Source of the DNA: Escherichia coli
GTDB taxonomy: Bacteria; Pseudomonadota; Gammaproteobacteria; Enterobacterales; Enterobacteriaceae
Length of the DNA stretch: 64,000 bases
Assembly: GCF_003334785.1 (NCBI RefSeq)
Contig: NZ_QOWV01000001.1
Direction: 5' to 3' (one strand)
In this document: in pieces, positions 14,552-14,838 of the stretch
Layout: every line of letters begins with the position of its first letter
Position numbering within the stretch: position 1 is the stretch's first letter
The notes under the pieces: model-generated
Seen by the model: the letters and a program-made list of their open reading frames with translations, nothing else
Databases searched by the model: none
What the model was told of the DNA's origin: nothing
Program-made: the position numbers and the translations under genes

Positions 14552-14830
14552 TATAGATGCTGATATAACTCAATTAGTTTATTTTAAACAATAAGATACA
14601 AGTTACCTTTCTGGTTTTGCGAAGACTGATTATTGATGACATGAACGGCAAATCGACCTGATTAAAAACCTAACAGATGAAATGGCTCACTGAAGCCGAG
14701 GGGATTTTTAGGATTATCAGGTGCGGAACTCATCGGGGCGCGGGCATCCTTGCCCACAGAGACGCCGGATAGATTTAAGCAAGCCAACCATTAATCAAAA
14801 ATCAGTGTTGCAAAAACGGGGGTGACCATA
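14552..14830 (+). ncRNA. Candidate guide (bridge/seek-like) RNA region in the IS right end
   Basis: 279-bp non-coding right end; the left end is only about 70 bp. Contains two 8-mers identical to the insertion target: aggtgcgg (14720..14727) and ggggattt (14700..14707). Small hairpin gggca-tcct-tgccc at 14742..14755. Transcript ends not defined. Confidence 0.35.
14818..14830. repeat. Right 13-bp inverted repeat of the IS (gggggtgaccata)
   Basis: Reverse complement of 13482..13494; lies exactly at the right junction. Confidence 0.75.
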
Positions 14831-14838
14831 GATTTCAT
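14831..14838 (-). other. treA: Displaced native treA start (ATG AAA TC), now separated from the gene body by the IS
   Basis: Plus-strand gatttcat is the revcomp of atgaaatc; together with the left flank it restores ATG AAA TCC CCC GCA CCT (MKSPAP). Confidence 0.6.

Follow-up and report, generated by a model that had tools for sequence, protein, structure and literature searches.

Several insertion sequences (ISs) assemble a promoter for their transposase gene only when their two ends are joined. In IS911, IS2, IS30 and IS21, which encode DDE transposases, a -35 box in one end and a -10 box in the other come together only at a circle or tandem junction (PMC12288879). Junction promoters have also been published for the IS110 family, as a first-pass annotation of the DNA studied here had pointed out. 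Circles of IS4321/IS5075 are abundant, with thousands of circle-junction reads, and -35 and -10 boxes have been proposed within their junction, AGATAATGAG (Partridge & Hall 2003, as cited in PMC5001619). The circle of ISEc11 generates an active junction promoter, Pjunc (Prosseda et al. 2006, via Siddiquee et al. 2024, PMC11187229), and according to the latter paper no further promoter was found in the element and Pjunc is presumed to transcribe the transposase gene together with a non-coding region. In IS621, circularization reconstitutes a sigma-70 promoter across the joined right and left ends, RE-LE (Durrant et al. 2024, PMC11208160). Circles that form without a junction promoter are described as well, for ISPpu9, a relative in the wider family (PMC12288879).

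The window, a 64,000-nucleotide stretch of Escherichia coli DNA, contains a 1357-bp IS (13476..14832, plus strand), named "ISSfl8 family" by PGAP, which is bracketed by the E. coli genes treA (11784-13496, minus strand) and dhaM (15158-16582, minus strand). Its boundaries were set by an empty site and by the rule that elements of the IS1111 group carry a 7-bp left and a 3-bp right extension outside their subterminal repeats (PMC11187229). In strain E2865 (L001) the treA-dhaM region is uninterrupted and reads ...GGTGCGGGGGATTTCATCAATC..., so that the left flank of the window (to 13476) and its right flank (from 14834) adjoin directly. Because these flanks are contiguous in the uninterrupted strain, the insertion amounts to 1357 bp including one GAT, a triplet that is repeated at 13474-13476 and 14831-14833 and within which the boundary is ambiguous. 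The empty site shows no bases added beyond the element, and a target duplication is thus absent. The insertion point falls between codons 2 and 3 of treA, the gene for periplasmic trehalase, which is severed from its own start codon and promoter; an in-frame GTG within the left end of the element gives rise to a chimeric treA open reading frame.

The single large gene of the element (13547..14551, plus strand) encodes a DEDD recombinase/transposase of 334 amino acids in which both the RuvC-like DEDD domain of the N terminus (PF01548, DEDD_Tnp_IS110, 1.1e-19) and the C-terminal IS116/IS110/IS902 domain (PF02371, Transposase_20, 1.6e-22) of the IS110 family were found. The NCBIfam model NF033542, "IS110 family RNA-guided transposase", scored it at 351 bits against a cut-off of 140. 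The translation contains GLVPRQYSTG, which corresponds to the C-terminal GL-P----S/T-G motif by which the IS1111 group is defined (PMC11187229). When 13477-14830 was compared by megablast with 5426 complete E. coli genomes, many of these proved to hold 100% identical copies, annotated as "IS110-like element ISSfl8 family transposase". The copy in the window is an intact member of the IS4321/IS5075 subgroup of the IS1111 group, and we refer to it as ISSfl8.

Identical 1357-bp copies were found at three sites: treA in the window (GGGGGA^TTTCATC, the caret marking the insertion point), a gene for a DUF4942 protein, which is the common site (TGGGGA^TTTCATC, L082), and arnC (GGGGGA^TTTCTTC, L094). 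Common to these three independent sites is the target GGGGA^TTTC(A/T)TC, and insertion is site- and orientation-specific across them, as in the IS1111 group. In the window, the left half-site GGGGGA lies in host treA (13470..13475, plus strand), where the three-site comparison places it, and the right half-site TTTCATC (14833..14839, plus strand), which includes the complement of the treA ATG and codon 2, was delimited by the empty site and the other insertion sites. Just 2 of the 5426 complete genomes, those of JKHS016 and AST198, carry the insertion in treA, which argues for recent movement; ISSfl8 is, judging by identical copies at three different sites, a recently mobile element.

One genome per species was scanned, giving 80 loci that encode proteins 66-90% identical to the recombinase, in Xenorhabdus, Photorhabdus, Serratia, Yersinia, Kosakonia, Klebsiella, Burkholderia-type genera, Cupriavidus and Pseudomonas. 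Locating the repeats and applying the 7/3 rule yielded 61 elements that are complete, among which 39 different pairs of ends occur. The non-coding region that follows the recombinase gene, about 265 bp long, occupies the place of the 3' non-coding region described in PMC11187229, and 22 aligned regions of this kind share a conserved fold with 10 covarying pairs. On this conserved structure we predict a guide RNA of the seekRNA/bridge type at 14661..14785 (plus strand, ends approximate). Guide 1, GAUGAAAU (14676..14683, plus strand), is the complement of the target's top strand (ATTTCATC), and guide 2, GGGGAUUU (14700..14707, plus strand), has the sequence of that strand itself and thus pairs with the bottom one; a small hairpin separates the two. 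Among the 34 relatives whose flanks could be compared, the segment at 156-160 nt from the IS end (guide 1) tracks the right flank in most, and the segment at 128-138 nt (guide 2) tracks the left flank in most; in ISSfl8 guide 2 matches the left half-site GGGGGA. IS1111 seekRNAs carry the top-strand match 5' of the bottom-strand match (PMC11187229), and GAUGAAAU likewise lies 5' of GGGGAUUU. Guide-flank tracking together with the conserved RNA structure makes the element look complete and RNA-guided. An Rfam scan of 13300-15000 at E<=1 returned no family, which puts the guide RNA outside the curated models.

A further segment of the non-coding RNA, GACGCCGGATAGATTTAAGCAAGCC at 14761-14785, is nearly invariant in all relatives, and its AUAGA(U) equals the terminus of the right end. 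In ISEc11, ISKpn4, ISPst6 and ISPa11 the corresponding GGAUAUA or GGAUAUG tracks the right termini CATATA or CATATG, which suggests that GACGCCGGATAGATTTAAGCAAGCC and its equivalents may act as a donor-end guide. A pairing of CUCAU, as donor guide, with the left extension was also considered and dropped, because CUCAU fails to covary with the variant extensions TAATGGG and TAATGAT.

The ends of ISSfl8 have the layout of the IS1111 group, in which subterminal repeats of 11-13 bp are flanked by the asymmetric extensions (PMC11187229), and this layout agrees with the empty site. The left extension TAATGAT (13476..13482, plus strand; TAATGAG, TAATGAT or TAATGGG in 37 of 39 relatives) precedes the left repeat ATGGTCACCCCC (13483..13494, plus strand), the left end reading GAT^AATGATATGGTCACCCCC at 13474-13494. 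The left repeat is the perfect complement of the right repeat GGGGGTGACCAT (14818..14829, plus strand), with which it covaries among the relatives, and the right extension AGA (14830..14832, plus strand) is shared by all of them.

By direct reading and by script alike, the hexamer TTGCAA (14808..14813, plus strand) is followed by exactly 17 bp (14814-14830, AAACGGGGGTGACCATA), which contain the right repeat, and then by GAT (14831-14833). Joining the ends at the boundaries given by the empty site, with one GAT, produces TTGCAA-N17-GATAAT directed at the recombinase open reading frame and its ribosome-binding site, as the first-pass annotation had proposed; the junction 40-mer is GTTGCAAAAACGGGGGTGACCATAGATAATGATATGGTCAC. 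The GA of the right extension forms the 5' part of the -10 hexamer and TAAT, the first four bases of the left extension, its 3' part. Two details of the earlier proposal have to be amended. It drew the GA from a flanking GA(T) core, but by the 7/3 rule GA belongs to the element's own AGA, and it looks like flank because the treA target happens to end in GA. It also called the promoter near-consensus, which overstates a score of 9/12 (-35 4/6; -10 5/6, with A2 and T6 present); at the optimal spacing of 17 bp this is a good match. The arrangement fits the Pjunc class, in which one end carries the -35, the other completes the -10, the two boxes stand 16-18 bp apart and the promoter faces the transposase gene.

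In the integrated element the same TTGCAA faces GATTTC, which agrees with TATAAT at 2 of 6 positions and bears out its earlier description as a poor -10. A scan that required 4/6 or more in each hexamer, 9/12 or more over both, and A2 and T6 gave, on both strands of the integrated region (13300-15000), 0 promoter-like sites against 2.4 expected from shuffled sequence, and the circularized element contains exactly one sigma-70 match of at least 9/12 on either strand, namely the junction. When each 60-bp end was shuffled separately, a junction-spanning promoter arose in 349 of 20000 trials (1.7%). Directly upstream of the -35 lies an A-rich tract, TCAAAAATCAG (14795..14805, plus strand), whose columns are 0.5-0.9 conserved among the relatives and which we take to be a possible counterpart of the proximal subsite of an UP element. 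The integrated right end also offers a weak outward promoter-like site at 14807-14834, GTTGCA-N16-TAGATT (7/12) or TTGCAA-N15-TAGATT, which is directed to the dhaM side, away from the element.

Joined ends were also sought in assembled sequence. No place in the 5426 complete E. coli genomes covered both ends as a circle or tandem junction would, and in metagenome contigs a 37-base family-wide junction pattern had 0 matches and a 20-base pattern 11, all of them chance matches without IS ends; these searches say little, because assemblies would seldom contain such transient forms.

The comparison of relatives backs the reading of these hexamers as a promoter. TTGCAA stands at a fixed offset in 39 of the 39 distinct relatives and the junction hexamer GATAAT in 37 of 39, with the 17-bp spacing fixed through Enterobacterales, Burkholderiales and Pseudomonas. 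Inside the spacer, the 12-bp repeats occur in 11 variants, with both arms changing compensatorily, and the columns upstream of the -35 are just 40-70% conserved. This pattern is strong evidence that selection acts on both boxes. The same bases might instead be kept for recombination, TTGCAA(AAAC) and AGA^TAATGA serving donor-end recognition by the transposase and seekRNA, and crossover, with the likeness to a promoter a by-product of little effect on expression. Indeed, conservation reaches into the spacer bases AAAA(C/T), which a promoter would not require, and the -10 overlaps the exact crossover point; since strand exchange occurs there too, the conservation of AGA^TAATGAG may reflect recombination, and conservation of the crossover bases AGA^TAATGA would fit a transcriptional or a recombination role alike. 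In ISEc11, 46 bp of the right end, TTGCAA included, were the minimal end used for mobilization in trans, and the invariant GGAUAGAUUU of the non-coding RNA matches the terminus of the right end, which makes it probable that the RNA reads the end bases. TTGCAA, however, is not part of the inverted repeat, and the left end has nothing that corresponds to it: no mirror copy of TTGCAAAAAC adjoins the left repeat, and TTGCAAAAAC is therefore not a symmetric end-binding site. Moreover, ISEc11, which is only 35% identical and whose junction promoter is reported active, has this hexamer, at an equal offset, as its -35 region. The two roles are compatible with each other, and we consider it improbable that recombination accounts for the conservation with expression left largely untouched.

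In two Xenorhabdus relatives (L007 and L028) the left repeat follows ATACAAG in place of TAATGAG, similar sequence, AAACC.GATTAAAG, stands ahead of this heptamer, and the left flanks mismatch the elements' own guide 2. Both relatives appear to have rearranged left ends, and at their junction GAATAC would arise and hence no -10.

A second alternative concerns the treA copy itself, in which expression of the recombinase might not be tied to excision and might be driven by a left-junction hybrid promoter or by read-through out of the flank. Because the target ends in GA, an intact GATAAT is also present at the integrated left junction (13474-13479), and what excision supplies is therefore the -35, not the -10. 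The treA flank offers TTGCGG with a 16-bp spacer or TTTGCG with a 17-bp spacer, an 8/12 match (13451-13479) facing the recombinase gene, so that the integrated treA copy may not be fully silent, and the first excision does need some expression from the integrated state. Yet the match is the weaker one, with a -35 of 3/6 that falls below the scan threshold; at the DUF4942 site the GATAAT is paired with no -35, the only 8/12 match there being unrelated, and the other left flanks of the relatives complete no -10, which makes a left-junction promoter a local accident and not a design of the family. We therefore regard it as improbable that the treA copy expresses its recombinase independently of excision.

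The reading that we favour, and hold to be probable, is that circularization of ISSfl8 switches on the promoter of its recombinase gene. It is supported by the anatomy of the sequence, by conservation among the relatives and by the literature; the anatomy, the boundaries, the uniqueness of the junction match in the circle, the conservation and the matching of guides to target are observed in ISSfl8 and its relatives, and the formation of circles whose ends abut exactly, like the activity of the junction promoter, is taken over from published work on related elements. ISSfl8 would move through a double-stranded circle. As long as it sits in the chromosome it would contain no good promoter, its right end supplying only the -35 TTGCAA, 4 bp inside the right inverted repeat. 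The seekRNA-guided DEDD recombinase would join the ends as ...ACCAT-AGA^TAATGAT-ATGGT... and thereby create TTGCAA-N17-GATAAT, from which transcription, beginning near nucleotides 10-12 of the element, would pass through a 60-nt leader and the recombinase gene; both the activity and the start site are inferred. The transcript probably continues into the downstream seekRNA, and such co-transcription would boost recombinase and guide RNA together for as long as the circle exists. Integration at GGGGA^TTTCATC would part the two boxes by 1.3 kb and turn the promoter off.

Among described systems, IS4321/IS5075 come closest, with a recombinase about 70% identical to that of ISSfl8 (matrix in the supplement of PMC11187229). 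The loci L071-L078 in our set, which are 1327 bp long and lie next to TTCCGTTTTCTGAG, are taken to be these elements; they share with ISSfl8 the pattern of the 12-bp subterminal repeat, TTGCAAAAAC before the right repeat and the AGA extension, and the junction AGATAATGAG is the same junction as in ISSfl8. The differences are in length (1357 bp in ISSfl8 against 1327 bp), in the last base of the left extension (TAATGAT against TAATGAG) and in the target, which for IS4321/IS5075 is the terminal repeats of the Tn21 family and for ISSfl8 GGGGA^TTTCATC, the guide segments differing accordingly. ISEc11 resembles ISSfl8 in its IS1111-group architecture, with its subterminal repeats, its 3' non-coding region encoding a seekRNA and its circle-junction promoter, in which the -35 likewise lies upstream of the right repeat, the hexamer again being TTGCAA 4 bp before the repeat, and the -10 lies between the repeats. 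The element in the window is nevertheless not ISEc11, which is ruled out by a length of 1443 bp, the target GTGAAAATACTG and a protein identity of only about 35%; its repeat sequence is different as well, and its junction promoter has been measured, whereas that of ISSfl8 is predicted from sequence.

Further afield, IS621 and the other bridge-RNA elements of the IS110 group share with ISSfl8 the DEDD recombinase, the circular intermediate and the RE-LE sigma-70 promoter. Unlike ISSfl8, IS621 has no long subterminal repeats, and its left end encodes the guide RNA, immediately after the promoter that drives it and before the recombinase gene, whereas the predicted guide RNA of ISSfl8 belongs to the right end and follows the gene. 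IS911, IS2, IS30 and IS21 are alike in regulatory logic only, with an unrelated transposase chemistry, target duplications and no guide RNA. Given these precedents, the idea put forward in the first-pass annotation is correct and amounts to the textbook model for this IS family; the finding is real but ordinary, the mechanism having been described already for IS4321/IS5075 and ISEc11, and the only new part is the application to ISSfl8. As an annotation it is of use, since an intact, recently mobile, RNA-guided IS is recorded as disrupting treA in a rare E. coli lineage, its target GGGGA^TTTCATC and guide segments are now defined, and conservation of both boxes across a wide subfamily supports the accepted model of a boost of recombinase and guide RNA only in the excised circle.

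The leader between the predicted start site and the recombinase gene has features of its own. A Shine-Dalgarno sequence, GGAGAG (13535..13540, plus strand), can be read 6 nt before the ATG (13547), and upstream of it lies a hairpin with an 11-bp stem and a 5-nt loop (13495..13521, plus strand), directly after the left repeat; the fold of the 80-nt leader RNA has z = -4.5. Most relatives have a hairpin at the equivalent place, with differing stem sequences, and in most a pyrimidine-rich tract, TTTTTCTTTC (13522-13546 in ISSfl8), then follows, which is able to pair with the Shine-Dalgarno sequence. Hairpin and tract together look like a terminator or a mask of the Shine-Dalgarno sequence. In addition, the left end at 13478-13487 (AUGA..UGGU) can pair with the start-codon region at 13539-13548 (ACCAUCAU); this complementarity is seen in 29 relatives, one position being compensatory, and holds in 97.8% of cells, with 4 compensatory cells. 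Shifting the register by +3 leaves the pairing just as good, however, and in the window copy the minimum-energy fold makes no use of the left-end pairing.

These features could be read as a gate at two levels. The left-end arm would mask the start codon in transcripts that read in from the flank, and junction transcripts, with their predicted start within the left repeat at about nucleotides 10-12, would lack the arm and be translated; at the same time every integration would rebuild the -10, the target ending in GA, so that an integrated copy would lack only a -35 and any -35-like sequence in the flank could complete the promoter. We put this forward as a speculation and think it unlikely.

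A last feature concerns the guide RNA. At the end of the recombinase gene (14513-14540) there is an 8/12 promoter-like match, TGGGCA-N16-AAGAAT, and its position, about 135 nt upstream of guide 1, would make it a possible internal start for the seekRNA.
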